NCBI GenBank assembly: GCA_014729775.1
Contig: WJJJ01000013.1
Span: 2,947 to 66,946 of the forward strand
Direction of reading: 5' to 3'
Length of the DNA stretch: 64,000 nt
From: Candidatus Omnitrophota bacterium
Lineage (GTDB): Bacteria > Omnitrophota > Gorgyraeia > Duberdicusellales > 4484-171
The number at the start of each line of letters is the position of its first letter. The first letter of the stretch is position 1. A program made the translations under genes and the position numbers. Below, in pieces: positions 8,821 through 33,165 of this stretch. The notes under the pieces were generated by a model. That model had not been told where the DNA came from. It was given only the letters and a program-made list of their open reading frames with translations, and made no database searches.

Positions 8821-8824
8821 TCAT

Positions 8825-12278: not shown

Positions 12279-12383
12279 ATGTTCTGTCGGGGATCTTTAC
12301 ACAGCGACGAATAATTTAACAGCCCGCAGATCTTTTTCGGGATACCTTTCTTTCCAGCCTTGATATTTTTCTCCCGGGTGAAT

Positions 12384-12399
12384 TGGCATGACTTTTGCT
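12384..12399 (+). promoter_or_regulatory. sigma-54 (-24/-12) promoter TGGCATG-N4-TTGCT
   Basis: tTGGCATgacttTTGCTa; GG at 12385-86, GC at 12397-98, 10-nt spacing; ~65 nt upstream of PEP-CTERM gene start 12463. Confidence 0.7.
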
Positions 12400-12462
12400 A
12401 TTGCTTAATCGAAGATCCACGAATGAAAAGAACGATGACATATGAAGAGAATGGAGGGATTG

Positions 12463-13248
12463 ATGAAAACAATGAAAATACTGGTATTGAGTGTGCTCAT
12501 GACCGCGTTGACGGCCGGGTCTTCGTTTGCCTATTTGATTGACGGAGATCCCAGCGACTGGGGGATTACGCCCTTTACGGACTGGACTCCGGACAGCTGG
12601 ACCGCTGACTGGACGGAACAGGACAACTGGAATCCGCAGGAACCCGTGCAGGGGGCTGATTACGATTCCGATCCGTTTAACGAGCGGTGGGACCTGGAAG
12701 CGATGTATTTCGACGATGACGATGATTATTTTTATTTCGGCATCGTGACCTCGAATCCGTATGAACACAACTGGGCCAAAGAGGATCTGGCGATCGATCT
12801 GGACGGAGACGATTTCCCGGAATACGGGCTGGACGTAGCCAATCTGGAAGGCGATCAGCTGGAAATGAGAGGTGTCTATTCGGTCGAGGACTGGCGTGAA
12901 TTGCGCGACGTTCCCTACCGTATCGATGAGGGTGATCAGATCGGCCAGTACCAGATCTATCAGAAGTACCTCGGCGATATCGAGCCGGATCTCGGTCAGC
13001 CGGGCGGATACTACGGGCATACCTATTTTCTGGAGATGAAGGTGAACCGGGCGCTGTTCGGGAATATTCCCTGCGGTACGCCGATCAATATTTTGTTTTC
13101 GCGGGTGACCTGCTTGAAGGACTGGTTTATGGTCAACGGCTGTACCAACGGCAATTGTCCTCCGGGAGTCATTCCCGAACCGGCGACATTGTTCTTGCTG
13201 GGCGCAGGTCTTTTCGGCATAGCCGGATCCCGCCGCAGAAAAAAATAA
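12463..13248 (+). CDS. PEP-CTERM sorting-domain protein (secreted, D/E/W-rich)
   Basis: Signal peptide MKTMKILVLSVLMTALTAGSSFA; C-terminus VIPEPATLFLLGAGLFGIAGSRRRKK (PEP motif + TM + basic tail). Confidence 0.85.
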   Translation: MKTMKILVLSVLMTALTAGSSFAYLIDGDPSDWGITPFTDWTPDSWTADWTEQDNWNPQEPVQGADYDSDPFNERWDLEAMYFDDDDDYFYFGIVTSNPYEHNWAKEDLAIDLDGDDFPEYGLDVANLEGDQLEMRGVYSVEDWRELRDVPYRIDEGDQIGQYQIYQKYLGDIEPDLGQPGGYYGHTYFLEMKVNRALFGNIPCGTPINILFSRVTCLKDWFMVNGCTNGNCPPGVIPEPATLFLLGAGLFGIAGSRRRKK

Positions 13249-13299
13249 CCGCATTCCTTGTAGTACCTTTCTTTACGGCAGGGTGTATTGAGTGATACA

Positions 13300-13333
13300 A
13301 CGCAGGGGTTCCCCACCCCTGCGTCTTCATTTT
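13300..13333 (+). terminator. rho-independent terminator
   Basis: ACGCAGGGG-ttcccca-CCCCTGCGT stem-loop followed by cttcatttt. Confidence 0.6.
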
Positions 13334-13514
13334 CCCGGCCGGAATCCCTTGTGTGACTGCGTGAGAAAAGGCGGCGCGCGGCTCTTTTCCGGTGTCGGTT
13401 TTTTTTACGATGTCACGCAATTTTACAGTCATTCCGCCAGGGGGAGGATTCCGAGGCAAGAAGATTGAGGGGATTCTCTTTCCTTAGGGGGGGCGGGGGT
13501 AAAAAAGTCAATTT

Positions 13515-13530
13515 TGGCATGGATGTTGCT
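13515..13530 (+). promoter_or_regulatory. sigma-54 (-24/-12) promoter TGGCATG-N4-TTGCT
   Basis: tTGGCATggatgTTGCTa; GG 13516-17, GC 13528-29, 10-nt spacing; ~60 nt upstream of start 13590. Confidence 0.7.
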
Positions 13531-13589
13531 ACAGACTTATAAAGACTAATCATAAGAGAATGGCGGTTGAGGGAAAAGGAGGCATAATT

Positions 13590-14336
13590 ATGAAGAAGGT
13601 AGTGAGTTTGGTGTGCGCGGTACTCGTAGGGATGATGGTTCAGGGGGTGGCTGAAGCATACACGACTTCGCTCACATTCAGCGGGAGCGCGCTATATGAC
13701 CTGGAGAATCCCGTATATTTTACGGAAGAGATGGTGCCGGATGCTGATACCCGGGAATTTTTGAACGGAGAAGATCCGTTTACCGGCGTGGGCGTAATAG
13801 ATTATACGATTGATTGGGATCTGCCGGAGTGGGATGAGCCGCGGTATTGGTCGGTTGATGCCAGCGCGAGTCTCTACGGTGAATACGTCGACGGCAGCGG
13901 AACGCATCATCCGGACATGGATCTGCATTGGTCCTCCGGCACGGCGTATATGGGACATTTTTCCCTGCAGACTTTGTTCGGGGGAATGACCGAAGATCAG
14001 GTAGTGAATCAAATCGTGGCAATGCTGGATCCGTATTACAGCGGAGATCTCGGCGGATACGCCGTACTCGAAGAGGGATTGGGCGGCATCGCGTTGGTCG
14101 GTGACTTGAATGCCGGGACGATTTACCTCGGTACCCTTGAGGATATTGACAGCGTACTGTTTCAGTTGAACGAAGATTATGACGGTTCCATGGACGTGAC
14201 CTCCGCGGATGTGACGTTCAGCGGTCAGGTGAACGCGACTGCCGCGGCTACGCCGGAACCGACGACCGTCTTCATGCTGTTGTCCGGATTGTGCGGACTG
14301 GCCGGGGTCGGTTTTAAAAAGAAACAGAAGGAGTGA
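13590..14336 (+). CDS. PEP-CTERM sorting-domain protein
   Basis: RBS GGAGG + ATG 13590; signal peptide MKKVVSLVCAVLVGMMVQGVAEA; C-terminus ATPEPTTVFMLLSGLCGLAGVGFKKKQKE. Confidence 0.85.
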   Translation: MKKVVSLVCAVLVGMMVQGVAEAYTTSLTFSGSALYDLENPVYFTEEMVPDADTREFLNGEDPFTGVGVIDYTIDWDLPEWDEPRYWSVDASASLYGEYVDGSGTHHPDMDLHWSSGTAYMGHFSLQTLFGGMTEDQVVNQIVAMLDPYYSGDLGGYAVLEEGLGGIALVGDLNAGTIYLGTLEDIDSVLFQLNEDYDGSMDVTSADVTFSGQVNATAAATPEPTTVFMLLSGLCGLAGVGFKKKQKE

Positions 14337-15010
14337 GAGCGGTGAGGAAGACTGTATTATTTTTGATCGGCGCATTAGTGATATCTTTTCCGGCGTACGC
14401 GATTACCTGGCTGACGCCCAATCTGGTGGTGAATCCGGGCGCGGAGACTGGTGATACCTCCGGCTGGGAAGTGTACGGTCCGGCGTACGCGACGACCAGC
14501 CAGTCCCAGAGTACCGGGACGGTCCTGCCTCATTCCGGCGATTATTTCTTTTCCTATGCGCAGAACGCGGCTTCGGATGCGGTTTTAGTCCAGTACGCGG
14601 ATGTGTCGACTTTTGCCGGTTTGATTGATTCCGGCCAGGCATATGTGCAGGCTGGGTTTTGGTACCAAACTGAAGAATATCAAGGTTCGAGCGATGAGGC
14701 GTTCGGTTCGCTGGGTTTTTTTGAAGGGGACAGCAGCGATATGCCGTTTGACGTGCTCACATCCGATCCGCTGGTGTCATCGAGTTGGGCGTACACGGAG
14801 GTGATGGAGTTGATCCCTGCCGGTACCCGGACTATAGGATTGGCAATGATTGGAGAGCTTGAGTCCGGCTCGTACGTGAACGCGTTCTTTGACGACGCGC
14901 AGCTGCGGGTCGGCACTGAAACCGTTATTCCCGAACCGGCAACCCTGCTGCTGCTTGGTAGCGGCCTGCTGGGGCTGGGCGGGACGCGGCTGCGGCGCAG
15001 AAAAAGATAA
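14333..15010 (+). CDS. PEP-CTERM sorting-domain protein
   Basis: GTG start (14333 or 14342) overlapping upstream stop; signal peptide; C-terminus IPEPATLLLLGSGLLGLGGTRLRRRKR. Confidence 0.8.
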   Translation: MRAVRKTVLFLIGALVISFPAYAITWLTPNLVVNPGAETGDTSGWEVYGPAYATTSQSQSTGTVLPHSGDYFFSYAQNAASDAVLVQYADVSTFAGLIDSGQAYVQAGFWYQTEEYQGSSDEAFGSLGFFEGDSSDMPFDVLTSDPLVSSSWAYTEVMELIPAGTRTIGLAMIGELESGSYVNAFFDDAQLRVGTETVIPEPATLLLLGSGLLGLGGTRLRRRKR

Positions 15011-15066
15011 ACTGTCTGTAGTGCGTTCAGTGAGGAGTGACATTTTTTGAGGAGAGAGGAGTTGGC

Positions 15067-15780
15067 ATGAAGAAGTATGTGTGTCTTGTTTCGTTGTTAA
15101 TGCTGATGATGTACACCCCGGGTGCGTACGCGCTCGTGACCAATATTTCGCTTGATCCGGTTGATTGGGAAGTGGTGCCCGGATCTCAGACGATTAATTC
15201 CTCTCTAAGTAATCCGTCGCCGGATATGCTGCGGATCCAGAAAAGTTCCGCAAATCCAGGCAGCGGGCTGGGCGCATTCTATCAGACGACAGATAGGTAC
15301 GATTTCACTGACGCGATACTCCAGTACCAATGGCGATTCAACGGCCAGGGATCTTATGGGAACGTGTCGATCGGGCCTCGCCCATGGCCGGAAGGTTCAG
15401 GGGTCGGCGGCCGCTTTACCAGCGGCTGGTCTTTTGCGGGGAGTACGCTCATCACTTCCAATCAGTGGTATTATACTCAGTTGATTATTCATGACGATTT
15501 ATCCTATAGTTACGATATCAGCGCGTTGGGATACGGAGAAGGCGGTTTTGTGTCATCGACCGGGTCGCTTTCTTCTGCCCAGTACGATTCTCTTCAGGAC
15601 GGGATCTTTCGCGTGAACATATTTGACAACTGGGCGGCGAATCAATACGTGGATATCACCGATGCGACAATCGAAAGCGAGGGCGGTCCGCAGGGCCCGA
15701 TTCCCGAACCGGCAACCCTGCTGCTGCTTGGTAGCGGCCTGCTGGGGCTGGGCGGGAAGCGGCTGCGGCGCAGAAAATGA
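15067..15780 (+). CDS. PEP-CTERM sorting-domain protein
   Basis: RBS GGAG + ATG 15067; signal peptide MKKYVCLVSLLMLMMYTPGAYA; C-terminus IPEPATLLLLGSGLLGLGGKRLRRRK. Confidence 0.85.
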   Translation: MKKYVCLVSLLMLMMYTPGAYALVTNISLDPVDWEVVPGSQTINSSLSNPSPDMLRIQKSSANPGSGLGAFYQTTDRYDFTDAILQYQWRFNGQGSYGNVSIGPRPWPEGSGVGGRFTSGWSFAGSTLITSNQWYYTQLIIHDDLSYSYDISALGYGEGGFVSSTGSLSSAQYDSLQDGIFRVNIFDNWAANQYVDITDATIESEGGPQGPIPEPATLLLLGSGLLGLGGKRLRRRK

Positions 15781-15808
15781 CATTTGAGGCAAAAGGAAAG
15801 GATTTCGC

Positions 15809-16447
15809 ATGAAAGTTCTTATTTTAATCGCACTCACCGTGGGGATTATGTGTACTTCCGGTCAGGCGGCCGAAGCATTGATGATCCCTGAAGTTGAACC
15901 GAACGATTCATTCGCGGATGCAATGAATCTGGATCCCTATTTTTCCGTCGGGGCCAATTCCGATATCGTTGATTCGGCAACCGTGCCCTGGGTTTCAGTG
16001 AGCGGGACCGGGAACGATACTTACGATTACTATTCGTTCACCGTTCCCTTCGCCGGGTCGCAGGGGATTTTTGAAATTGACTATGGGTATGGGGTCGGCG
16101 GAAGTATTGATCCGATACTCCTGCTCTACGCGTCGCCGTACAACCAGCTTGACGGTGACGACGATTCCAATCCGGCATGGGGTGCCGGCGGCAGTACCTC
16201 CTGGTTGGATTCGTATTTACCGCATGGCGGCGGGTGGTATACCTTTCATTCTCCCGGGCTGTATTATCTGCGGGTGAGTGAATGGTCGAGAGGACCGGTG
16301 CGTCCCGGCGGAACGTATACCCTGCAGGCATCAGTGAGCGGGCATAGCACGGATACGGTGATCCCCGAGCCGGCGACCCTGCTGCTGTTGGGCAGCGGCT
16401 TGCTCGGCGTGGGCGGATTCAAGCTTCGCCGCAGGAAAACAGCGTAA
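15809..16447 (+). CDS. PEP-CTERM sorting-domain protein
   Basis: Signal peptide MKVLILIALTVGIMCTSGQAAEA; C-terminus VIPEPATLLLLGSGLLGVGGFKLRRRKTA. Confidence 0.85.
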   Translation: MKVLILIALTVGIMCTSGQAAEALMIPEVEPNDSFADAMNLDPYFSVGANSDIVDSATVPWVSVSGTGNDTYDYYSFTVPFAGSQGIFEIDYGYGVGGSIDPILLLYASPYNQLDGDDDSNPAWGAGGSTSWLDSYLPHGGGWYTFHSPGLYYLRVSEWSRGPVRPGGTYTLQASVSGHSTDTVIPEPATLLLLGSGLLGVGGFKLRRRKTA

Positions 16448-16591
16448 GTGTCGGTATCTTTGACAAAGTCGGATATGTTAACAACGCTTTCGGCGAAAGA
16501 GAGAGGCGAGAGCCTTACAGAGGGAGTTATGACCAGAAATAAGGCAAAATCAGGCCGAAAGAGAAGTTTTTTTGCATTGACGGCTACTTTT

Positions 16592-16607
16592 TGGCACAGG
16601 AATTGCT
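16592..16607 (+). promoter_or_regulatory. sigma-54 (-24/-12) promoter TGGCACA-N4-TTGCT
   Basis: tTGGCACaggaaTTGCTt; GG 16593-94, GC 16605-06, 10-nt spacing; ~75 nt upstream of ATG 16682. Confidence 0.75.
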
Positions 16608-16681
16608 TTAATATCAGGTGGAACGTGGGAACACAAATGAATAGCTTGAAACGGAAGAGAGCAGAACAAGGAGGAATAGCG

Positions 16682-17575
16682 ATGAAAAGAGTTTTAGGAG
16701 TAGCAGCATTGGGGATTTTACTTACGGTGTGCGGCAACGCGTTTGCGTTTCACGCCAGTAACATTCAGTTTGATCTGACGCCGGCCGGTATTACCGGGAC
16801 CACTCCTGACGGTGATAATGTAACCGGTTTTTTCAATCAGTTGCAGACATATATGCAGACGTCATCTTACGTGACGGATAACGGAGACGGGTTGCCGTCT
16901 GTAGGAGATACGTTTGTGGATGTGGGTGATTTGAATGTGACCGCGTTGCTTGGTGGCGGGTCACTGTTGGATACCGAAGGGTTGAACACGCCGACGCTCG
17001 GGTATGAAATTACCGGTCGCTGGGATGATTTGACCGGCGGAATCGTGGATGCGTCGGTATCCGGTGGGGGAACAACGACCCTTTTGTATGATTACACCGG
17101 CGGAACGCTGAATATGTACGCGGACCAGCCGCCCAACCAGACTTACAACAGCGGTATTGGCTCCAACGATGACAATCCGGCAACGTTCACCGACGGGTCG
17201 TTGATCGGTACCCTTCAGCTTGTGAGCGGAAGCGGTTCGTTGATTGTTGACGCGGCCGGCAATCCTATTCAGGGCGCGACTACCCTTTCCTGGAGATTTA
17301 CCAATATGCTTCCCGGGTTTTGGCTGGATGCGGCCGGTAATGATCTGAGCACTTACGTGTTTACTGTAGGTTGGGAAGTACAGGCGCTGTCCGGCTCGGA
17401 TACTCATGGGGAGACGTTGATTCTTACCGATAACGGTGACGGTACCTATCGTGTTGACTCAGATCATGACGGTTCCGTAAGTGTGGGCGTGATTCCGGAA
17501 CCGGCGTCTCTGCTTCTTTTGGGCGGCGGATTGTTTGGGTTAGCCGGCATTGGTATTCGCAAGAAAAAGAAATAA
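16682..17575 (+). CDS. PEP-CTERM sorting-domain protein (G/T/D-rich)
   Basis: RBS GGAGG 16670-74 + ATG 16682; signal peptide MKRVLGVAALGILLTVCGNAFA; C-terminus VIPEPASLLLLGGGLFGLAGIGIRKKKK; the listed ORF 16448.. is an in-frame upstream extension without RBS. Confidence 0.85.
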   Translation: MKRVLGVAALGILLTVCGNAFAFHASNIQFDLTPAGITGTTPDGDNVTGFFNQLQTYMQTSSYVTDNGDGLPSVGDTFVDVGDLNVTALLGGGSLLDTEGLNTPTLGYEITGRWDDLTGGIVDASVSGGGTTTLLYDYTGGTLNMYADQPPNQTYNSGIGSNDDNPATFTDGSLIGTLQLVSGSGSLIVDAAGNPIQGATTLSWRFTNMLPGFWLDAAGNDLSTYVFTVGWEVQALSGSDTHGETLILTDNGDGTYRVDSDHDGSVSVGVIPEPASLLLLGGGLFGLAGIGIRKKKK

Positions 17576-17603
17576 ACCTTTTGGCGGATTGTACAAGGTT
17601 CAA

Positions 17604-17640
17604 AAGAGGCAGGGATAATTCCCTGCCTCTTTCTTTTTTT
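17604..17640 (+). terminator. rho-independent terminator
   Basis: AAGAGGCAGGG-ataatt-CCCTGCCTCTT followed by T9 run. Confidence 0.8.
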
Positions 17641-17651
17641 AGACCGTAATC

Positions 17652-18512
17652 ATGAAAAAAGCCGTATCTATCCTACTTGCCGGGATTTTGACCGCCTCCG
17701 GTATCTCTTCTGCTTCGGCGGCGGTGGTGTATCTGTCCTCAACACGTCAGATTGATCTCGGCGGGGTGACTTCGGAAATGTATCAGGTGCTGAAGTATGA
17801 TACTTTCAGCGGCGAAGCCTCGCTGTTTTTCGATGAATTCGATCCGCTCAATGTCCTGACCGGAAGAGATAAGCAGATCGACGCTCTGCACGTACTCGAT
17901 GAGGATAATATTATCCTTTCTACCACCCGTGATGTGCGCTTCAGCGAAGAGGAGGACGAGCCGTGGTTTAAGGACGGCGATGTGTTTAGATACACCTTTT
18001 CTACCGGGACGGCGGTCCTGCTGTTCAGCCAGGAGCATTTCACCGATGCCCGGGAAGATATCAATGCGTTGCAGTATATTGACGAGGACACGCTGTTACT
18101 GTCCGTGCGGGGCAATGCTGAGCTCGGCGGCTTATCTTTTCGCGACGGTGACGTGGTGCGCTATACTCTTTCCACCGATACTGCCGAATTGTTTTTCAAC
18201 GAAGACAGTTTTTTGGGCAACGAGGACATTGACGCGTTCTCTATGATAGACGAACAGAACATCCTGTTATCCACGCAGGCAAGCGCGACGCTCGGTGATC
18301 TTGTGTTCCGGGACGGAGACATTATCCAGTATAACTTGATCACGGGACAGGCGAGTCTGTTCTTAAGCGAAGATTTGATATCTTCGCCGGTGGATGTCGA
18401 CATTGACGCCTTTCACTTCGTGGCCGGTACCCCGGTGATCCCCGAACCGGCGACATTTCTGTTGTTCCTTTTCGGTCTTTTTCCCCTTTTCCGCTGCCGT
18501 TGCCGCGGGTAA
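17652..18512 (+). CDS. PEP-CTERM-like sorting-domain protein with divergent C-terminal tail and internal triple repeat
   Basis: Signal peptide; three ~45-aa repeats (DGDVFRYTFSTGTAVLLFSQEHF / DGDVVRYTLSTDTAELFFNEDSF / DGDIIQYNLITGQASLFLSEDL); C-terminus VIPEPATFLLFLFGLFPLFRCRCRG. Confidence 0.75.
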   Translation: MKKAVSILLAGILTASGISSASAAVVYLSSTRQIDLGGVTSEMYQVLKYDTFSGEASLFFDEFDPLNVLTGRDKQIDALHVLDEDNIILSTTRDVRFSEEEDEPWFKDGDVFRYTFSTGTAVLLFSQEHFTDAREDINALQYIDEDTLLLSVRGNAELGGLSFRDGDVVRYTLSTDTAELFFNEDSFLGNEDIDAFSMIDEQNILLSTQASATLGDLVFRDGDIIQYNLITGQASLFLSEDLISSPVDVDIDAFHFVAGTPVIPEPATFLLFLFGLFPLFRCRCRG

Positions 18513-18583
18513 CCATCCCGTTCTACTTATTTCCCAATCTCGACTTCCCCCGTACCCTTTCTCCTGCCCGCTTCTTACCCACT

Positions 18584-18682
18584 GTTAACTTCGTAGGTTA
18601 ACCGCATAGCCAAAAAAGCATTGATTCTGTTGACTTTGGTTAACTTCGTAGGTTAACACGGGGGGAGGTTAACACGGGGGGG
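18584..18682. repeat. REP-like GTAG-containing palindromic repeats (GTTAAC-ttcGTAG-GTTAAC x2 plus GGTTAACACGGGGG x2)
   Basis: Exact 19-bp copies at 18584-18602 and 18639-18657; half-copies at 18651-18664 and 18667-18682; immediately upstream of an IS200/RAYT-type transposase gene. Confidence 0.55.
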
Positions 18683-18763
18683 CGGATGTGGGTGAGCGGA
18701 GGAGGGGTGACGAAGAGTTGACAGAGGGCGAAAAAAGAGAGATTATAACGAGAGGAGGTGAGG

Positions 18764-19468
18764 ATGAAGCTGAGAATTGAGGACGGCGGCGTGTATCATA
18801 TATTTAATCGGAGCATCGCCAATTTTGTTATTTTTCATACGGAGAGCGATTATAGAAGGATTATCTGCGCTTTTTCTTTTTTTCAATGGAGAGATCTTCC
18901 CTGTAGTTTCAACCGGCTTCTGAAACGGATTGAAACGGGTCAGCTCACAGAAAAGGACATTTTAAAAAAACAGATTCGATTACCGCGCACTCAAATCATC
19001 GCCTATTGCCTCATGCCGACTCATTTGCATATGATTTTAACACAGATAACTGCTGACGGAATAGCTCAGTATATGAAAAACGTACAGAACAGCTATACAC
19101 GCTATTTCAATACCAAGTACCACAGAAAAGGGCCCTTATGGGAAAGTCGGTATAAAAAAGTTCGGGTTACTACTGACAACCAGTTGCTGCATTTGACCCG
19201 TTACCTGCATTTAAATCCGGTCACGGCTCATCTGGTTGACGATCCGGAGCAATGGCCGTATTCTTCGTATCATGAGTACCTCAACCGTATTCCTGCAGAC
19301 GAGAGGATCTGCGGGTACGAAGATGTATTGGAAGTCAAACCTCGATCTTACCAGAAATTCGTAAGAGAACGCATTCATGATCAACGGGATATTGCCGCGC
19401 TCAAGAAATTTCATTTGGAAGATTGCGGCGATCATTTGTATGCAAAAATACCTTCTGTTCAATCTTGA
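18764..19468 (+). CDS. IS200/IS605-family Y1 (HUH) transposase, REP-associated tyrosine transposase (RAYT)-like
   Basis: YHIFNRSIANFVIF N-terminus, HUH motif LMPTHLHMIL, catalytic-Tyr region YTRYFN...RYLHLNPV; gene is conspicuously AT-rich relative to flanks. Confidence 0.75.
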   Translation: MKLRIEDGGVYHIFNRSIANFVIFHTESDYRRIICAFSFFQWRDLPCSFNRLLKRIETGQLTEKDILKKQIRLPRTQIIAYCLMPTHLHMILTQITADGIAQYMKNVQNSYTRYFNTKYHRKGPLWESRYKKVRVTTDNQLLHLTRYLHLNPVTAHLVDDPEQWPYSSYHEYLNRIPADERICGYEDVLEVKPRSYQKFVRERIHDQRDIAALKKFHLEDCGDHLYAKIPSVQS

Positions 19469-19542
19469 ATCCAGAGGCATTCGGAAAAGATCTGTGTGTG
19501 TAGGAGCACACACCCTGTGAGCCTCTGAGGGTAACGCGGTGA

Positions 19543-21924
19543 GTGCTTGCAAATCCGGCGCGTTTCGATTATGATAAGGACGTGGCTGCCTTCATTCGCC
19601 GATTCATTTTAGTCCTTTTGCGCCGGCCGCTGATATCGATCAGCGTGACCGGAGCAATTACGCTTCTGGCCCTCTCAGTCCTGCCGAAAATTCAAATCGA
19701 TCACAGCGTTGACGTATTCTTTGATCGTGACAGCCCCAGCTACGTGCAGTTTCAGGAATGGAAAAAAGAATTCGGAAGCAACCAGCTGATCGTGGTTGCG
19801 CTCGATTCCGGAGAGGTGTTTACCGAGAAATCTCTTCGGGTGATCCGTACGCTTACTCTCGCGTTTGAACGCCTGCCTCACGTGGACGAGGTGACCAGTA
19901 TTACCAATGTCAATGATATCCGGGGTTCCGATCAGGATTTTATCGTCGAGAAGTTTATTAAAGAGATCCCTTCTGATCCGGACGCGCTGTCCCGTCTCGA
20001 AACCGCCGCGCTTCAGAATCCGCTTTACGTGAAAAATCTAATTTCTCCGGACGGAATGGTTGCCGGTATCTCCATCGAGCTCGTCCGTCATGAAGGAGAA
20101 GATGATACCTATAAGAAGGAAGTCATCGAGGATGTATTCGAAATCCTTCAGAAGGAAGTCCCCTCTTCCCATGAGTATTACGTAAGCGGACTGACCACTA
20201 TCGAACATTTCTATGCCCGGTATATGCAGGAGGATCTCAAACGGTTCCTGCCGTTGATCTTCGTTTTTCTAATCGCAGTGTTGGTGATAAGTTTTCGGCG
20301 TCTGGGCGGCGTCCTTATTCCGCTGGTGACGATCACGGTGAGTCTGGTCTGGACAATGGCCTTCCTCTACTTCTGCGGGTTTTCCATCAATAACGTGACG
20401 ACGATTATTCCTCCGATCATCTTGGCGATCGCGGTTGCCGACAGCGTGCATTTAGTGGGGGAAACCCTGCAGAGGGCGCGAAGGGGGGATTTTTGCGGCG
20501 GGAAGGAAGAAAGTTCCGCCGTGGCGGAGACCGCGATGCATTTGCTTAAGCCCTGCGCGCTGACGACGCTCACTACGATGATCGGTTTTTATTCTCTCAC
20601 GGTGAGCCGGATCCCGCCGGTGCGGGAGCTGGGGATCGTCGCGGGAACCGGGGTCTTCTTTGCTTTTGTGCTGACCTTTACCTTTTTGCCCGCGCTGATC
20701 AAACAGTTTCATTTGTGTGCGATGAAGCCCGGCGGCGGGCGCGGGGCGCTGGACAGCGGGTTCGACGCGTTTTTAAAGAAGATGGCCGGATTCAGCGAAC
20801 GTTTTCATCGGGCGATTCTCTGGGGCGCGGTGCTTCTGGTCGCGGGCTGTGTGTGGGGTACGACGTTCATTCAGTCGGAAACAAGCGTGCTTGAATATTT
20901 CAAACCGCAGACACAAGTGTATCAAGCCACTACGTTTATGGAGGAGAACCTGAGCGGAGTGCATTTCCTTCAGATTTCCCTGCGTGCTCAGGAACGGGAT
21001 TATTTCAAGGATCCGGCGCGGCTCCGCGAGATCGAGAATCTGGAGCGTTTTTTGGAAAAGGTTCCTGAAGTCGATAAAGTCGAATCGGTCGTTGATTACG
21101 TCAAGGAGATCAATAAGTCGTTCCATAACGAGAATCCCGGCTATTACGCCATCCCGGAGTCACGGCCGCTTCTGGCGCAGTATCTCCTGTTGTACGGCGC
21201 CCGGGATTTACGTGAGTTTGTTGATTCCCAGTGGGAATGGACGACTGTGCAGGTCCGTCTCACCGAACATAGCACGGCGCGGCTGAGTGAAGTGATCGAA
21301 AATGTAGAGGGATATCTGCACCGTCATTTCAGCGGGATTGAAGCAAGGGTCCTGGGGCAAACCGTGCTTGAGGTGGAGACGAACAACGCCGTTACTGAGG
21401 GGCAGGTCAAAAGTCTGGCGATGGCAATGGCGGTGATCTTTGTCATGATGTTTTTCGTGTTCCGTACTTTCGGGGCCGGCATGGTGAGCATGGGGGCGAA
21501 TCTCTTGCCTCTTCTGATAAATTTTGGGATAATGGGGTTTGCCGGGATTCGGCTTGACAGCGCGACGTCGATGATTTCCGCGATCGCCATCGGCATTATC
21601 GTTGATGACACCATTCATTACATGCACTCGTTTCAGCATTCTCTGCAGTCGCGGGGAAAGTACCGGGAGGCGATGTATGATGCGTTCCATCAAAAGGGCC
21701 GGCCGATTATTCTTACGTCCCTAATTTTGTTCTGCGGTTTCGGAGTGATGATATTTTCTCATTTTGTCCCCACGTATTATTTCGGAATGCTGAGCGCGCT
21801 GTTGATGATTCATGCCTTGGTGGTCGATCTGATCATTCTGCCCAGCGCGCTGATAGCGCTGAAGCCCCGGTTTCGGTCGGGGCGGAAAGGAAAGGAGAAC
21901 CGCGAAAATGAACTCGTCCGCTGA
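19543..21924 (+). CDS. RND-superfamily exporter, MMPL/COG1033 type (12 TM, two large periplasmic loops)
   Basis: Two 6-TM bundles with sterol-sensing-like segments (ILAIAVADSVHL / AIAIGIIVDDTIHY); GTG start, true start may be GTG 19582. Confidence 0.8.
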   Translation: MLANPARFDYDKDVAAFIRRFILVLLRRPLISISVTGAITLLALSVLPKIQIDHSVDVFFDRDSPSYVQFQEWKKEFGSNQLIVVALDSGEVFTEKSLRVIRTLTLAFERLPHVDEVTSITNVNDIRGSDQDFIVEKFIKEIPSDPDALSRLETAALQNPLYVKNLISPDGMVAGISIELVRHEGEDDTYKKEVIEDVFEILQKEVPSSHEYYVSGLTTIEHFYARYMQEDLKRFLPLIFVFLIAVLVISFRRLGGVLIPLVTITVSLVWTMAFLYFCGFSINNVTTIIPPIILAIAVADSVHLVGETLQRARRGDFCGGKEESSAVAETAMHLLKPCALTTLTTMIGFYSLTVSRIPPVRELGIVAGTGVFFAFVLTFTFLPALIKQFHLCAMKPGGGRGALDSGFDAFLKKMAGFSERFHRAILWGAVLLVAGCVWGTTFIQSETSVLEYFKPQTQVYQATTFMEENLSGVHFLQISLRAQERDYFKDPARLREIENLERFLEKVPEVDKVESVVDYVKEINKSFHNENPGYYAIPESRPLLAQYLLLYGARDLREFVDSQWEWTTVQVRLTEHSTARLSEVIENVEGYLHRHFSGIEARVLGQTVLEVETNNAVTEGQVKSLAMAMAVIFVMMFFVFRTFGAGMVSMGANLLPLLINFGIMGFAGIRLDSATSMISAIAIGIIVDDTIHYMHSFQHSLQSRGKYREAMYDAFHQKGRPIILTSLILFCGFGVMIFSHFVPTYYFGMLSALLMIHALVVDLIILPSALIALKPRFRSGRKGKENRENELVR

Positions 21925-22801
21925 AACTGCGGGAGAGGCCGATCAATTTTTCAGAGAAGCTTTCTGCCGGAATATCGGACTGCTGACCGAAGAGGAGCAG
22001 GAAAAGCTGCGGCGTACGACCGTCGGGGTTATCGGAGCCGGCGGCGTCGGCGGGCTGCACCTGACGACTTTGGCCCGTTTAGGCGTAGGAGGTTTCCATA
22101 TTGCCGACATGGACAGGTACGAATTAGCCAATGTCCAGAGACAGTGCGGCGCGTTCGTGCATACCCTCGGAAAAAATAAGGCGGAGGCAATGCGGGAGAT
22201 CGCGCTGGGGATCAATCCTCATCTGCGGCTTAAAGTATTTTCCGAGCAGATCGGCCGTGAAAATATTCATCAGTTCCTGGAAGGGGTGGATGTGCTCATT
22301 GACGGCATCGATTTTTTTTCGCTGGAAGCGCGGCGCTGCGCTTTCGATGCCGCCCGGGAACGGGGAGTATATACCGTCACCGCGGGGCCTCTGGGGTTCG
22401 GCAGTGCGATGCTGGTGTTCGCTCCCCAAGACGGGATGACGTTTGACGAATATTTTGATATTCATCCTGACATGAACGAGACGGAGAAGATTATCGCGTT
22501 CGCGGTAGGGCTTGCGCCGGCGGCTCTGCATATGCGTTATTTAAATCTTGGTTCGGTGAATCTGAAGAAAAAATCGGGACCGTCTCTGGTAACCGCGTGC
22601 ACGCTGTGCGGGGTGCTTGCCGCCACTGAGGTGATTCGCATTGTATTGAGAAAAGACAGACCGGCCGCGGTGCCGCATTATTTTCAATACGATCCGTATC
22701 TGCAGAAACTGAAGAAAGGATACGTGCGGTGGGGGAATCGTCATCCTCTTCAACGGGTCAAACGCTGGTATCTCGCCAGAAAACTCGGCGCTCGCGCCTG
22801 A
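21908..22801 (+). CDS. ThiF/MoeB/TcdA-family E1-like adenylyltransferase
   Basis: Rossmann nucleotide loop VGVIGAGGVGGLHLTTLARLGVGGFHIADMDRYELANVQRQ; 17-bp overlap with RND gene. Confidence 0.75.
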   Translation: MNSSAETAGEADQFFREAFCRNIGLLTEEEQEKLRRTTVGVIGAGGVGGLHLTTLARLGVGGFHIADMDRYELANVQRQCGAFVHTLGKNKAEAMREIALGINPHLRLKVFSEQIGRENIHQFLEGVDVLIDGIDFFSLEARRCAFDAARERGVYTVTAGPLGFGSAMLVFAPQDGMTFDEYFDIHPDMNETEKIIAFAVGLAPAALHMRYLNLGSVNLKKKSGPSLVTACTLCGVLAATEVIRIVLRKDRPAAVPHYFQYDPYLQKLKKGYVRWGNRHPLQRVKRWYLARKLGARA

Positions 22802-22837
22802 AGGCTTCTAATAACCGATCAAAAGAGGAGTAGCCTG

Positions 22838-23623
22838 ATGACTTACGGGAAGAGAATATTATGGATGTCCGCTTTATTTACCTGTATATGGCTCTCCTTC
22901 CCTCCCGGCGCAGCCGCCCAGGAGCTGAGCGGAGGGCAGATCATGGAAAAATCCTATTTTCGCGAGGACGGGAATGACGCTGAATTCAAGGTTGAGATGA
23001 TCTTAATCGACCGCCGCGGCCGCGCCAGGGACCGTACGCTGATGATGTATTTTAAAGATTACGGGAATTTGCGGAAAACATTTCTCAAGTTCACGGAACC
23101 GGCTGATATCGAGGGTACGAAGTTCTTATCCTGGGAAACCGAAAACGGCGAGGAGACGCAATACTTGTACCTTCCCGCGCTGGGCAGATCCAAGCGGATC
23201 GTGAGTAGCCAAAGGGACCTGCGGTTTGTGAATACTGATTTTACCTACGAGGATATGGAACGGCGCGAGCCCGGTCAGGATACCCATCGGTTTCTGCGGG
23301 ACGGTGAATCCCTGAACCGGCCGTGCTTTGTGGTGGAGAGCGTGCCCAAACCGGACACTTCCCAATACGGAAAACGCGTCAGCTGGGTAACGAAAGATTC
23401 TTTTGTGGTCGTCGCGGTTGATTTTTACGATACCCGGGAGAAGAAAATTAAGGAATTACGGGTGAAGGAGTTGGAGGAGGTCGAAGGGATCCCGACGGCG
23501 ATGAAAACGATAATGAAGGACCTTAAAGAGGATCACCGGACGGTGATGAAGGTTGAGTATGTGGAATATAATCAGGGGCTTGCGGATACGCTGTTTACGC
23601 TTTCCGCTCTCGAACGTAATTAG
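22838..23623 (+). CDS. LolA-like outer-membrane lipoprotein-sorting protein (type commonly paired with MMPL/RND exporters)
   Basis: Signal peptide; ~260 aa; KFLSWE...YLYLPALGRSKRIVSSQRDLRFVNTDFTYEDM resembles the LolA-like family; call from memory of the family. Confidence 0.5.
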   Translation: MTYGKRILWMSALFTCIWLSFPPGAAAQELSGGQIMEKSYFREDGNDAEFKVEMILIDRRGRARDRTLMMYFKDYGNLRKTFLKFTEPADIEGTKFLSWETENGEETQYLYLPALGRSKRIVSSQRDLRFVNTDFTYEDMERREPGQDTHRFLRDGESLNRPCFVVESVPKPDTSQYGKRVSWVTKDSFVVVAVDFYDTREKKIKELRVKELEEVEGIPTAMKTIMKDLKEDHRTVMKVEYVEYNQGLADTLFTLSALERN

Positions 23624-25001
23624 AAGTATTGGATTGGCGTTCGCGCTGAGTGCGGCGGCTTCGCATCCGATCACTGCGCAGGATGCGCTGGAAGGAGCAG
23701 TTTCCTGGTCTTCTTCAGGGGAGCTCGAATTCCGGGTGTTTCAGGACACGGTTGAAGATACCGAATACGAAGATCACCGGCAGTATTTCAGCCGGGCATT
23801 ATGGGAGAATGAGGTCCGGCTCGAAGGAAGTCCTTTGCGCGTTCAGATAAACGCTGAAGCGGTCGGAGAAGCCTGGTCGGGGGACGAGAGCAGAGAGGAC
23901 GCGGATGTATTCCTGCACGAAGCGTACGCGAGTTATGTCAAGGGAGCGCATGCGTTCACCGTCGGGCGTCAAGTGGTGACCTGGGGCCGGATTGAACGGT
24001 CCAGGCTGGACGTGTGGAATCCGCAGAGTTACCGGTGGTTTGTATTGTTTGATAAACAGCGTCGGAAAAGGGCGGTTCTGATGAGCCGCTATGAATATAT
24101 TGCTCCCCGCTTTGATCTCGAATTTGTCTGGATGCCCTGGTTTGAACCTTCTCAGTTGCTGTACTTCGGATCGGACTGGGCGCTGTTTGATCACACGAAA
24201 AAAATCATACGAGAGGAAGGTTATCCGCCGGCGGTGAAATCTCTGGTGAATGCGATCGAAATCCGGGCCGATCCTGAGCGGGAGAAGCACGCGCTCACCA
24301 ATTCTCAAGGCGGAGCGCGACTGCGCTCCCGGGCCGGGGATATCGATTACGCGCTCTATTATCTGAACGTGGCGCAGAATCTTGGAGTCCTGCAGGAATC
24401 GACGCCAAAGGGGAACCTGGTGAAACAGTTTTTGTATCTTCCCTCCGCCGGGAACCTGAACCGGCTGCTCGCGGCTGCCCCGGCCGGAGATGATCTTATT
24501 CTGCGCAAAGAACATCCAAGAATGCACCTGATCGGTGCCGACGCAGAAACCGTGTGGGGAGTAAGTTCGGTGCGAGCGGAGCTGGCCTACGCGACCAAAA
24601 TGGCGTATTTGCGGGAGGATTTTTCGTATGCGATCCACGATACCCTTTTTGGGGCGTGCGGGGCCGATTACACCGGTTCCGGCGGTCTGTATCTGAATAT
24701 CGATTTTCTTTACAGGCAAATTCTCGGTTATAGAGAGTTGTTTGCCGACGAAGAATATACCTTCCAAGTCGACGGCACGCTGCGGAAGGATCTCTGGAGA
24801 GGCAGCGCCGAATTCGTTCTGGACGGTTCGTTTAATTTCTCGCGGCATGACTGGATGATCAATCCGGTGGTCACCTGGAAAGCGAATCCCTCGTTTCACG
24901 TTTCCGCGGGAATGGTTTTTTTCGGCGGGGACTTAACGACTCTTTTTGGACGGTTTGATCAGAAAGATCTGGTATACGTCCGTACTCAATACTTCTTTTA
25001 A
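23553..25001 (+). CDS. putative outer-membrane beta-barrel protein (RND-cassette associated)
   Basis: Signal-peptide-like N-terminus (LAFALSAAASHPITAQD), alternating amphipathic strands, C-terminal ...YVRTQYFF terminal Phe; start uncertain (overlaps previous gene). Confidence 0.45.
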   Translation: MSMWNIIRGLRIRCLRFPLSNVIRSIGLAFALSAAASHPITAQDALEGAVSWSSSGELEFRVFQDTVEDTEYEDHRQYFSRALWENEVRLEGSPLRVQINAEAVGEAWSGDESREDADVFLHEAYASYVKGAHAFTVGRQVVTWGRIERSRLDVWNPQSYRWFVLFDKQRRKRAVLMSRYEYIAPRFDLEFVWMPWFEPSQLLYFGSDWALFDHTKKIIREEGYPPAVKSLVNAIEIRADPEREKHALTNSQGGARLRSRAGDIDYALYYLNVAQNLGVLQESTPKGNLVKQFLYLPSAGNLNRLLAAAPAGDDLILRKEHPRMHLIGADAETVWGVSSVRAELAYATKMAYLREDFSYAIHDTLFGACGADYTGSGGLYLNIDFLYRQILGYRELFADEEYTFQVDGTLRKDLWRGSAEFVLDGSFNFSRHDWMINPVVTWKANPSFHVSAGMVFFGGDLTTLFGRFDQKDLVYVRTQYFF

Positions 25002-25026
25002 TCCGCGCAAGAATCCTTCCGGATGT

Positions 25027-25848
25027 TTACCGCATGATTTTTTCGAAATCGTACGTGGGGTAACATTTCTTGAGGTAGGCGAGGTGTTCCGGAGAGCAGT
25101 TTCGGAGGATTGGATGGCGTTCCACGAAAAACGAGCGCAGGTCGTCTTCCGAAAAACGGAATTTTCCGCTGAATTTTTCGGGTTCGTTCTTTACCCGCAG
25201 GAACATTTTCTGTAAATCTTCACGCTGCATCGTTTTGCATCGTTCTTCAAACCCGTGAAGGTTGATGTATTTGCCTATTGCCGGTGCTCCGTTGGCGTGA
25301 TTGTACGTCTTGAGCTCTCCCAGATCCTCAAACAGGAGAAAATCATAAATAAGCTTATGTTTTGGATGGAACGTGATGCAGGCAAAATCATAATCGTGAT
25401 ATATCGAAAGATAATCAAAGACAAGCTTGAACAGTGAAAAGATGAAGAACATTTTTTTTGCGTTCAACATGACCGATACGCCGCGAAAGAGGTCGGTATT
25501 GCTGGCGAGCATGGTCACTTCGCATACTTTTTTCCCCTGATCGCGTAACGCATCGATTTCATTGCGGTAAATTGCGTCCATGGGCAGGCCCAGAGGGGAA
25601 TCGGGGATCACCGAAACGGTGGAGAGGACAATGTCGTCTGCGACCGTGACAAACGTGCTGCTTTGCGGCAGTGCGTTGTAGACCGTGTAGCGCATCTGCG
25701 ACGGACATTCCTCGGTGTATCCGCGTTTCAGATATTCCCGATAGACGAGAGAGTACGCCTGAGTGATTTCCTCGCGTATGCGTGCGATACGGTAATCCAC
25801 CGAACGTAAGAGAGTTTTTACGTCTATGCAGTCTTGTGACATATTCAT
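25027..25848 (-). CDS. putative N-acyl amino acid synthase (LuxI/FeeM-like; exosortase-system-associated type)
   Basis: ~270 aa, N-terminal RIREEITQAYSLVYREYLKRGY; AT-rich gene; assignment from size, context and weak recollection of the family, not a firm match. Confidence 0.4.
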   Translation of the reverse strand: MNMSQDCIDVKTLLRSVDYRIARIREEITQAYSLVYREYLKRGYTEECPSQMRYTVYNALPQSSTFVTVADDIVLSTVSVIPDSPLGLPMDAIYRNEIDALRDQGKKVCEVTMLASNTDLFRGVSVMLNAKKMFFIFSLFKLVFDYLSIYHDYDFACITFHPKHKLIYDFLLFEDLGELKTYNHANGAPAIGKYINLHGFEERCKTMQREDLQKMFLRVKNEPEKFSGKFRFSEDDLRSFFVERHPILRNCSPEHLAYLKKCYPTYDFEKIMR

Positions 25849-26327
25849 GACTTTACGTGAATGTCCCCGTGCTGATCGAGATATTCGCTGAGAATCGTCC
25901 GGCTGACGTAGAAAACGAATTTCTGCCGGTCTTGAGGGGACATTTTGTGAAACCGGATTCCGGTAAGATACGCGGGATACGAAGAGGAGCCTGAATGCGT
26001 GTTCTCCGGCTGGGAATTCCAGATGACGTCGGCATCAACCGAGAAAGGTTTCTGTTCGTCCGGAAGCTTCAGTTTAAGCGAGATCACCTGTCCCCGGGTG
26101 AGCGGGACAGGGGAAAGAAAGCGCATCCCTCCGCCGCTGATATCTTCAATCGCGAGAGGGCGATGCCAACGATTCCGGCCGCTCATTGCAAATTCCATCT
26201 CCAGCGGGAGAGTGACCCGGTCGGTCTTTCGCTTCTCTTTGGCCAGCAAAGTCTGCAGTTTTTTCAACTCTTCCCGCATGAATGCTCCTCGCTGTTCCAT
26301 TATCGGCATATTTGGGCGTACTGTCAA
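25845..26327 (-). CDS. PilZ domain protein (c-di-GMP binding)
   Basis: KEKRKTDRVTLPL (RxxxR) and EDISGGGMRF (DxSxGG) PilZ motifs; ATGA-type overlap with downstream gene on minus strand. Confidence 0.75.
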   Translation of the reverse strand: MTVRPNMPIMEQRGAFMREELKKLQTLLAKEKRKTDRVTLPLEMEFAMSGRNRWHRPLAIEDISGGGMRFLSPVPLTRGQVISLKLKLPDEQKPFSVDADVIWNSQPENTHSGSSSYPAYLTGIRFHKMSPQDRQKFVFYVSRTILSEYLDQHGDIHVKS

Positions 26328-26569
26328 GGCGAAATCCGCCGGTTTGAGAGAGAACGACGCGTCCGCGAGAAGGAGAGAAGAGCTCGCGTGATCATCCGTG
26401 GGAGGGCATCACAAAATTTGTGGAATTTTCCCACAAAGAGCCAAAAATGTCGAAAAGATTGACATTGTTTAACTTGTTGATAAATATAGTGTTAAAGAAA
26501 CATTGTTCGTTTCCTTTGAGGCTTTGTTGATATTTATAGACATTTCGCCGATGGGGGGAACCGCCGAAT

Positions 26570-26597
26570 GAAAACGGTTTCAAGGAAAACGGTTTTA
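26570..26597. promoter_or_regulatory. two tandem AAAACGGTTTT palindromes (candidate enhancer / bEBP upstream activating sequence)
   Basis: Perfect 11-bp palindromes at 26571-26581 and 26586-26596, third half-like site AACCGTTTA at 26630-38; 75-100 bp upstream of the sigma-54 -24 element at 26673. Confidence 0.4.
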
Positions 26598-26671
26598 TAT
26601 CTCTAACAGTTTGATTCCCAACCGTTTATAGTTGACTTATTTCACCCTTTTTCGCGGGAGTAACTCTTATT

Positions 26672-26687
26672 TGGCATGGAATCTGCT
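26672..26687 (+). promoter_or_regulatory. sigma-54 (-24/-12) promoter TGGCATG-N4-CTGCT
   Basis: tTGGCATggaatCTGCTt; GG 26673-74, GC 26685-86, 10-nt spacing; 30 nt upstream of start 26717. Confidence 0.65.
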
Positions 26688-27598: not shown

Positions 27599-27615
27599 AC
27601 GAAGTTTCTCTGCTG

Positions 27616-28422: not shown

Positions 28423-28619
28423 GTGGTAAGGTGAAACTGACATGTATGGTGTGCGCCCTGTGCGTCGCGTTTCTCACCGGATGTAAAGGCGGCGGTGGAG
28501 GAGGAGATCAGTATTCCTATCTGCAAGATATTCCTCATCAGCCTGAACCGGCGACAATCGTGATGTTCGGACTCGGCGCACTGGGCGTGTTCGGCGCGCG
28601 TAAGTTTAAAAAGAAATAA
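28419..28619 (+). CDS. mini PEP-CTERM lipoprotein (66 aa: lipobox signal peptide + Gly run + PEP-CTERM sorting signal)
   Basis: RBS AAGGAGGG; MSGKVKLTCMVCALCVAFLTGC (lipobox LTGC) KGGGGGGDQYSYLQDIPHQ PEPATIVMFGLGALGVFGARKFKKK. Confidence 0.7.
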   Translation: MSGKVKLTCMVCALCVAFLTGCKGGGGGGDQYSYLQDIPHQPEPATIVMFGLGALGVFGARKFKKK

Positions 28620-32473: not shown

Positions 32474-32474
32474 A

Positions 32475-33116: not shown

Positions 33117-33141
33117 TAAAGAATTTTTGAAATGTTATACT
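33113..33141 (+). promoter_or_regulatory. sigma-70-like promoter (TTGATA-N17-TATACT)
   Basis: -35 TTGATA 33113-18, -10 TATACT 33136-41, 17-bp spacer, 25 nt upstream of ATG 33166. Confidence 0.5.
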
Positions 33142-33165
33142 TTAGTTCTCCTCAAAAGAGAACCT

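Follow-up and report, generated by a model that had tools for sequence, protein, structure and literature searches.

Candidate sigma-54 promoters and upstream enhancer elements in a PEP-CTERM/exosortase locus of a Candidatus Omnitrophota bacterium

Four -24/-12 sites and the genes behind them

We analysed a 64-kb stretch of DNA (64,000 nucleotides (nt); hereafter the window) from a Candidatus Omnitrophota bacterium, which carries an exosortase, a series of genes for PEP-CTERM cargo proteins and four near-identical candidate sigma-54 promoters (P1-P4). A sequence-only reading had placed these promoters in front of cargo genes and a priming transferase gene, and had proposed that they are targets of the activator PrsR. 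The sites and the transcription units behind them, with six PEP-CTERM cargo genes between 12463 and 17575, are as follows:

12384-12399, +, candidate sigma-54 promoter P1, TGGCATGACTTTTGCT; 17.9 bits; predicted transcription start near 12410
12463-13248, +, PEP-CTERM cargo gene 1 (unit 1); TIGR02595 27.5 bits (cutoff 16); signal peptide; VIPEPATLFLLG...RRRKK tail
13300-13324, +, intrinsic terminator at the end of unit 1; 10-bp stem with 7 GC pairs, then a T-rich tail
13515-13530, +, candidate sigma-54 promoter P2, TGGCATGGATGTTGCT; 17.65 bits
13590-16447, +, unit 2, a tandem of four genes for PEP-CTERM cargo (13590-14336, about 14342-15010, about 15067-15780 and 15809-16447), all four passing TIGR02595
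16592-16607, +, candidate sigma-54 promoter P3, TGGCACAGGAATTGCT; 17.84 bits
16682-17575, +, PepA-like PEP-CTERM cargo gene (unit 3); NF033554 floc_PepA 76.9 bits (cutoff 80) over its full length; TIGR02595 23.2 bits
17603-17632, +, intrinsic terminator at the end of unit 3; 13-bp stem, then CTTTTTTT
26672-26687, +, candidate sigma-54 promoter P4, TGGCATGGAATCTGCT; 16.1 bits; core TTGGCAT.GAA..TGCTTT conserved in the orthologous locus L081 (described below)
26717-28619, +, unit 4 (transferase, membrane protein, small lipoprotein)
26717-27598, +, unit 4 gene 1, 293-residue Bac_transf priming phosphoglycosyl transferase; PF02397 227.7 bits; TIGR03025 294.5 bits (cutoff 295.55)
about 27616-28422, +, unit 4 gene 2, polytopic membrane protein
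28419-28619, +, unit 4 gene 3, 66-residue PEP-CTERM lipoprotein; PF07589 27.9 bits
28648-28679, +, intrinsic terminator at the end of unit 4; 14-bp stem, then CTTTTAT; 20 nt before the tetratricopeptide repeat (TPR)/exosortase genes

The pattern TGGCAYRNNNNYTGCT (TGGCAYR-N4-YTGCT) matches the window four times, at 12384, 13515, 16592 and 26672, always on the + strand, against an expectation of 0.03; four matches were reached in none of 100 dinucleotide shuffles. The GG-N10-GC spacing is exact in 4/4 sites, which differ from TGGCACGNNNNTTGCT by one, one, one and two mismatches. The sequences and positions given by the sequence-only reading are thus confirmed. An approximate sigma-54 weight matrix, built from the consensus TGGCACG-N4-TTGCW of Barrios et al. 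(1999), was also run over both strands. It gives 17.9, 17.8, 17.6 and 16.1 bits for the four sites and 12.65 bits for the best other site in the window; in 300 first-order Markov simulations, matches of at least 16 bits averaged 0.107 per window and never exceeded two. The frequency of such sites in the window is clearly above random. When the 300 nt upstream of each of 18 gene starts across the locus were scored, a best value of at least 16 bits was found at the P1-P4 starts only, the others reaching at most 6.5. By this scoring, no sigma-54 site precedes the gene at 17652, the TPR/exosortase operon or the genes for PrsK, RpoN and the PilZ protein.

All four sites are intergenic and co-directional with the downstream gene. 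The C of the -12 element lies 65, 61, 76 and 31 nt from the start codon at P1-P4, and the ATG follows the 16-mer after 63, 59, 74 and 29 nt. Ribosome-binding sites of the GGAGG type stand before 12463, 13590 and 16682, and a weak one, AGGTAAAAGAAAATG, before 26717, where the ortholog in L081 begins at the equivalent codon. In a multiple alignment of the four upstream regions only TTGGCA...TGCT and the ribosome-binding sites are invariant. Because the regions lack extended homology beyond these motifs, the similarity of the sites is not a by-product of duplicated DNA. In every available sequence test, the four sites behave as sigma-54 promoters would.

Looser searches were discarded. The bare GG-N10-GC spacing is uninformative (680 observed versus 666 expected in the window), and the extra matches to TGGC-N8-TGCW are those of chance. 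The matches to CGGCAACCCTGCTGCT at 14937 and 15710 were rejected as promoters: they belong to the repeated coding tail of PEP-CTERM genes.

A signal peptide and an IPEPAT...LLLG...RRRK tail are present in 8/8 cargo open reading frames, of which six pass TIGR02595; the 66-residue protein passes PF07589. The gene assignments of the sequence-only reading, PEP-CTERM cargo and a priming transferase, are borne out by these tails and by the Bac_transf domain. Its label 'EpsB-type' for the transferase is loose: the 293-residue protein corresponds to the catalytic C-terminal half only and scores 265 bits on TIGR03013, below the cutoff of 393. The 66-residue protein that closes the transferase operon is made up almost wholly of a signal peptide of lipoprotein type (LTGC), a run of Gly and the PEP-CTERM tail. 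Since unit 4 also ends with this tiny cargo protein, each of the four promoters serves at least one PEP-CTERM gene.

The unit boundaries proposed earlier agree with the terminators that end units 1, 3 and 4; that of unit 2 is less definite. Its four genes, with gaps of 5-56 nt between starts supported by ribosome-binding sites, form a tight cargo operon, and the matrix scan found no internal sigma-54 site. The terminator search found none after 16447, and the P3 enhancer begins 2 nt past the stop codon, so part of the transcription of unit 2 may continue into unit 3. Downstream of unit 4, no promoter was detected between 28648 and 28700, where the string of TPR, TPR, exosortase, EpsI, kinase and activator genes starts. 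Because the TPR/exosortase/EpsI genes lack a sigma-54 site of their own and start 20 nt past the unit-4 terminator, their expression may partly need read-through. This layout suggests that expression of the string relies on regulated read-through of transcription begun at P4. In L081, the equivalents of the TPR/exosortase genes are packed tightly behind a sigma-54 promoter.

Upstream elements and candidate regulators

A 17-nt element, TGTCGG-N5-TTTACA (motif 1), which the sequence-only reading had missed, lies upstream of P1-P3, either singly or as an 18-bp tandem. A variant of it, TGTCGA-N5-TTGACA, lies further upstream of P4. The candidate enhancers and the sites resembling those of integration host factor (IHF) are:

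12285-12301, +, single motif 1 for P1, TGTCGGGGATCTTTACA; 0 mismatches; 82 nt before TGGCA
13393-13409 and 13411-13427, +, tandem motif 1 for P2, TGTCGGTTTTTTTTACG and TGTCACGCAATTTTACA; 1 mismatch and 2 mismatches; 105 and 87 nt upstream of TGGCA
16449-16465 and 16467-16483, +, tandem motif 1 for P3, TGTCGGTATCTTTGACA and AGTCGGATATGTTAACA; 1 mismatch and 2 mismatches; 126 and 108 nt upstream of TGGCA
26448-26464, +, near-palindromic distal element for P4, TGTCGAAAAGATTGACA; two mismatches from motif 1; 207 nt upstream of TGGCA
26470-26482, -, IHF-like site beside the distal enhancer, TATCAACAAGTTA; matches WATCAANNNNTTR; within a block conserved with L081
26604-26616, -, second IHF-like site, AATCAAACTGTTA, between the distal element and P4; about 60 nt upstream of the -24 element; L081 keeps the consensus (AATCAATATATTA)

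The core GTCGGN5TTNACR has four matches in the window against an expectation of 0.36, each of them upstream of one of P1-P3. When up to three mismatches to motif 1 are allowed, 6 of the 40 window matches fall within the strand-specific space before P1-P4 (1.2 kb; about 0.4 expected), and this space contains the three best matches of the window. The tandem copies at P2 and P3 are 18 bp apart, start to start. Between enhancer and promoter at P1-P3, a consensus search found no strict IHF site. Matches to motif 1 with two mismatches at 14111, 22866, 24698 and 55310 were treated as chance, as they lie in coding sequence and have no sigma-54 partner. The weaker sigma-54-like sites at 34501 (within the second activator gene), 60525 and 50799 were rejected because they lack motif 1, two of them lying in coding sequence.

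The same pair of elements is found in three other loci with PrsR homologs, all from metagenome-assembled genomes (MAGs). In L002 (Nitrospirae), TGTCGGAATAGTTTACA is followed after 85 nt by TGGCATGTATATTGCT before a PEP-CTERM open reading frame. In L007 (Verrucomicrobiales), TGTCGGAATTTCTTACA is followed after 109 nt by a sigma-54 site directly after the PrsR homolog gene. In L001 (Planctomycetia-labelled), TGTCGATTCTCTTTACA lies upstream of TGGCACGCTTCTTGCT before a PEP-CTERM gene. The regions upstream of the PEP-CTERM promoters of L001 (9820-9935 and 10000-10230, also 8800-8900) contain about ten GTATGAC(A/T) repeats and long low-complexity runs of the CCCTACACC type, and the L001 promoters at 8977 and 10282 lie within a duplicated block of about 100 nt.

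P4 is the least certain site because it has two consensus mismatches, a weak ribosome-binding site and a first gene that does not encode cargo. A metagenome scan with the transferase returned 80 loci, 79 of which match the catalytic domain only and are of little use for footprinting. The remaining one, L081, holds the sole full-length transferase ortholog of the scan (56% identity) and is syntenic with the window in transferase, membrane protein, TPR and exosortase genes. Its sigma-54 site, TGGCATAGAAAATGCT, precedes the ATG by 38 nt; 206 nt upstream of that site lies TGTCGAAAGAATTGACA, compared to 207 nt in the window. A pairwise alignment shows three conserved blocks separated by diverged DNA: the enhancer with the adjoining TAACTTrTTGAT, a second match to the IHF consensus, for which we used WATCAANNNNTTR, and TTGGCAT.GAA..TGCTTT. 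With this phylogenetic footprint, both P4 and its distal enhancer become credible, and the sequence matches suggest a role for IHF at this promoter. L081 also has a divergent sigma-54 site, preceded at 143 nt by the same near-palindromic enhancer.

Further repeats occupy the DNA between the distal enhancer and P4. The direct repeat TTGTTGATA(A/T)(A/T)TATAG occurs at 26474-26489 and 26524-26539, 50 bp apart, its first copy overlapping the conserved IHF-like block. A palindrome of the form TGAAAAC-N0-3-GTTTTCA lies at 26567-26595 (TGAAAACGGTTTCA at 26569-26582), followed by a second GGAAAACGGTTTTA. It recurs in the 5' leader of the orthologous promoter in L081 (3947-3960) and in L007 (11345-11361), where it directly adjoins motif 1; these are three of the five matches in 1.74 Mb of sequence searched. 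The palindrome may be a second operator or a symmetric variant of motif 1.

Two pairs of kinase and activator genes and a gene for sigma-54 itself flank the promoters:

8825-10903, +, PrsK-like transmembrane sensor histidine kinase; best NCBIfam match TIGR02916 PrsK, 228 bits (cutoff 300)
10866-12278, +, PrsR, with receiver, AAA+ and Fis-type helix-turn-helix domains; TIGR02915 581.2 bits (cutoff 502.6)
33127-34374, +, second kinase
34371-35756, +, second sigma-54 activator
35762-37153, -, rpoN (sigma-54); TIGR02395 377.8 bits (cutoff 277); all three Pfam sigma-54 domains

Residues 16-655 of the PrsK-like kinase align to positions 11-679 of the 679 positions of TIGR02916, and its counterpart in L001 scores 262.6 bits on the same model. 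The prsR gene, whose true start is possibly the ATG at 10920, ends 105 nt before P1. The loop of PrsR predicted to contact sigma-54 reads GSFTDA instead of the canonical GAFTGA. Related activators show GAFTDA, GAFTNA and GSFTGA, and we therefore regard this as natural variation that keeps the F and the T. The closest relative of PrsR is the L001 protein (67% identical), and the recognition-helix signature LGI(T/S)RPTLYDL is common to the PrsR homologs of the window, L001, L002 and L007.

Along its whole length, the second activator shares 42% identity with PrsR; on the PrsR model it stays below the cutoff, at 422.7 bits. Its recognition helix, LGINRTTLYNKM (also LGINRTTLYNKMRDY), departs from the signature. 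Because of this difference, and because overall identity is only 42%, PrsR is favoured as the probable binder of motif 1. The RpoN box, ARRTVAKYR, is intact. The rpoN gene is convergent with the second kinase/activator pair and adjoins a YqeY gene, rather than standing in the usual lptB-rpoN-hpf context. By analogy with RpoN1 of Aquincola, this embedded rpoN could be a dedicated sigma-54 paralog.

Neighbouring genes

The remaining genes of the locus surround the four units:

257-6289, genes for glycosyltransferases and for polysaccharide deacetylases; several are of the XrtA/PEP-CTERM-system type, among them a TIGR03006 deacetylase (349.8 bits, cutoff 276)
6280-8820, double ATP-grasp protein
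17652-18512, seventh cargo gene, past the unit-3 terminator
18758-25001, genes for a REP-type transposase, an HAE3 RND transporter and ThiF-like, LolA-like and DUF1302 proteins
25027-26327, -, FeeM-like acyltransferase and PilZ protein
28700-31569, two TPR proteins
31613-33116, exosortase and EpsI; 8TM_EpsH passes; TIGR02602 166 bits (cutoff 105.6); EpsI 103.6 bits (cutoff 42.8)

The exosortase falls below the XrtA-specific model TIGR03109 (173.8 bits versus a cutoff of 208), and its subtype, as judged from these models, is best described as XrtA-like. The product of 6280-8820 has 846 residues and two ATP-grasp modules resembling those of carbamoyl-phosphate synthase, and its gene abuts that of the PrsK-like kinase. 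The gene at 17652-18512 starts 20 nt past the unit-3 terminator and encodes a protein with the PEP-CTERM tail VIPEPATFLLFLFGLFPLFRCRCRG (Pfam 17.5 bits versus a cutoff of 20.7). It lacks a sigma-54 site, and only a weak sigma-70-like match is present, at 17590-17619. The block from 18758 to 26327 lies inserted between the cargo cluster and P4. It comprises a REP-associated tyrosine transposase, the HAE3 RND transporter with its LolA-like and DUF1302-like partners, the ThiF-like protein, an N-acyl amino acid synthase of FeeM type and the PilZ protein, whose gene is divergent from P4. The PilZ gene hints at an input from cyclic di-GMP. No tRNA genes and no Rfam families were found in the window.

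Proposed regulation, its alternatives and known systems

We consider it highly probable that the four sites are enhancer-dependent sigma-54 promoters of a local PrsK/PrsR regulon in an XrtA-like exosortase/PEP-CTERM locus. Sigma-54 holoenzyme would wait in a closed complex on TTGGCAYR-N4-YTGCT, and PrsK would phosphorylate PrsR upon an envelope or biofilm signal. PrsR would then assemble on the 17-bp motif 1, centred about 93-137 bp upstream of the -24 element at P1-P3. At P4 it would assemble on the near-palindromic TGTCGA-N5-TTGACA about 218 bp upstream, a distance probably bridged by IHF-type bending. From there it would loop to the promoter, contact sigma-54 via the GSFTDA loop and open the promoter using ATP. 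As a result, seven PEP-CTERM cargo proteins and the polysaccharide-priming transferase are predicted to be expressed together, in an all-or-none manner. The view that the cargo genes and the transferase are PrsR/sigma-54 targets is supported; we infer the part of PrsR, least securely at P4. Motif 1 upstream of all four promoters, its presence in independent PrsR loci and the conservation of the P4 enhancer in the orthologous locus strengthen this link.

Several points weigh against this reading. The matrix, built from a published consensus, is only approximate, and the case for this organism is one of sequence inference throughout. The PrsK-like kinase remains below its family cutoff, and the window holds no full-length PrsT (TIGR02917), the two TPR proteins of about 480 residues scoring 45.9 and 61 bits against a cutoff of 312. 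The 18-bp register of the tandem sites is a non-integral number of helical turns. The spacers of P3 (108 nt) and P4 (207 nt) exceed the published range of 32-92 nt, and the P4 enhancer, with its two mismatches, lies among repeats (TTGTTGATA twice, GAAAACGGTTT twice) that other factors could bind. Finally, the second sigma-54 activator and its own kinase (33127-35756) may activate some of the promoters.

The last point defines an alternative in which the promoters are genuine but some or all of them, most likely P4, answer to the second activator instead of, or besides, PrsR. This protein resembles PrsR in sequence and in its score on the PrsR model, and its gene lies directly downstream of the exosortase and EpsI genes. 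The P4 enhancer is unlike those of P1-P3 in sequence (TGTCGA..TTGACA) and in distance, and the P4 region has elements absent at P1-P3, including the TGAAAACGGTTTCA palindrome that recurs near the related L081 and L007 promoters. However, the recognition helix of the second activator (LGINRTTLYNKMRDY) departs from the signature of the PrsR homologs in motif-1 loci. With two mismatches, the P4 element still agrees with the TGT-N11-ACA frame (17 bp) of motif 1, and TGTCGA is also found in L001. Published binding data tie PEP-CTERM promoters to the response regulator predicted as their activator (PMC3333781). We therefore regard control by the second activator as unlikely. If it held for P4, the priming transferase would respond to a different signal than the cargo genes.

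The four matches might also be products of chance, or relics of an upstream duplication that do not act as promoters; a sigma-54-like 16-mer of at least 14 bits is indeed expected about 0.7 times per window by chance. But four matches were observed where 0.03-0.11 are expected, and all of them are intergenic, co-directional and 29-74 nt from a gene start, with motif 1 upstream of each. P4 is conserved in L081, the architecture matches the published one, and the four regions share no extended homology that would mark them as relics. The statistics already effectively refute this explanation, which we consider extremely improbable.

With the PrsK/PrsR regulon as the preferred reading, a wider scheme can be drawn, to which we give tentative and somewhat less than even credence. 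Here, one PrsK/PrsR-sigma-54 switch would control both cargo production and polysaccharide initiation, possibly together with the TPR/exosortase operon via terminator read-through. P4 would depend on a distal (about 218 bp), near-palindromic, IHF-assisted enhancer, kept in sequence and spacing across distant genomes, and the embedded rpoN and the second kinase/activator pair would add inputs. The preferred reading itself predicts that priming of the matrix polysaccharide and export of cargo are switched on together, which bears on the triggering of biofilms and flocs. If correct, the wider scheme would contrast with polysaccharide synthesis in Zoogloea and Aquincola, and the system of motifs 1 and 2 would reach beyond the Proteobacteria. 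The analysis also yields a clean regulon map (four promoters, their enhancers and the unit ends) for the exosortase locus of an uncultured organism, and proposes TGTCGG-N5-TTTACA, made of TGT-M-R-R half-sites, as a specific sequence to which PrsR may bind.

Control of PEP-CTERM genes by PrsR and sigma-54, which the sequence-only reading had put forward, is supported but not a new idea: the arrangement was foreseen in 2006 and has since gained partial confirmation. Haft et al. (2006) described a 17-nt motif 1, sometimes repeated and with TTTACA at its 3' end, upstream of proteobacterial PEP-CTERM genes, and a 17-nt motif 2 that conforms to the sigma-54 -24(GG)/-12(GC) pattern (PMC1569441). The spacer between the motifs averages 62.8 nt (range 32-92), and motif 2 lies on average 71 nt (23-221) of non-coding DNA from the start codon. 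The motifs were seen in Proteobacteria only; their phylogenetic profile matches that of PrsR/PrsK/PrsT, and PrsR was proposed to bind motif 1 (PMC1569441). Our window, compared with the text description of motif 1 in that study, shows the same arrangement. A TTTACA-ended 17-nt element, sometimes repeated, is followed by a spacer and a 17-nt -24/-12 motif within large non-coding upstream regions; PrsR and PrsK-like kinase genes stand in tandem nearby, by polysaccharide genes, and occasional sites precede non-cargo genes. The distances of 29-74 nt from 16-mer to ATG fall within the published range, as do the spacers of P1 (82 nt) and P2 (87 nt); those of P3 and P4 lie outside, the P4 spacing being conserved in L081.

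In contrast to the system of Haft et al., the P4 enhancer variant ends in TTGACA. Most of their cases are single genes, whereas one promoter here drives a four-gene cargo operon and another the priming transferase operon: units 1-3 open with a cargo gene and unit 4 with the transferase. A full-length PrsT is absent from the window, and the PrsK-like kinase scores below its family cutoff. The closest PrsR relatives with the motif pair come from MAGs labelled Planctomycetia, Nitrospirae and Verrucomicrobiales rather than from Proteobacteria.

In Aquincola tertiaricarbonis, pepA depends on RpoN1, and its transcription start maps to a TGGCAC/CTGCTT promoter with a predicted enhancer upstream; P4 has the same CTGCTT -12 element (PMC9850573). 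Work on Zoogloea, as summarised in PMC9012009, places a PEP-CTERM gene under the transcriptional control of RpoN and PrsK/PrsR, and describes PepA overexpression as making PrsK/PrsR dispensable for floc formation. The PepA-like gene at 16682-17575, behind a sigma-54 promoter and an enhancer, resembles pepA of Aquincola and Zoogloea (Z. resiniphila). Polysaccharide synthesis in these organisms reportedly does not depend on RpoN/PrsK/PrsR. Here, by contrast, the polysaccharide-priming transferase lies behind a candidate promoter of this kind.

In Desulfovibrio vulgaris, the predicted PEP-CTERM regulator DVUA0057 enriched predicted PEP-CTERM targets in vitro in a DNA-affinity-purification chip (DAP-chip) study of 2011, which validated no binding motif for it (PMC3333781); our literature search found no validation of a PrsR binding motif after that study. 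Like DVUA0057, PrsR is a sigma-54-dependent response regulator from an exopolysaccharide-type operon, and unlike that study, ours proposes a binding motif, as read from the DNA.

At NtrC/glnAp2, tandem 17-bp dyad-like activator sites lie about 100-140 bp upstream of the -24/-12 promoter, and IHF assists looping at distant enhancers. The present locus shares the receiver-AAA+-Fis-type activator with its cognate kinase and the tandem upstream sites. It differs in the half-sites (TGTCGG/TGTAAA versus TGCACC), in the 18-bp tandem register and in the targets, which are secreted cargo and polysaccharide genes instead of nitrogen assimilation. The departures of the locus from the system of Haft et al. 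are matters of degree. The existing picture is unchanged, and the locus is a clean but ordinary example of the known PrsR/sigma-54 architecture, in which the only mildly new point is that a polysaccharide-priming transferase operon is predicted to belong to the same regulon.

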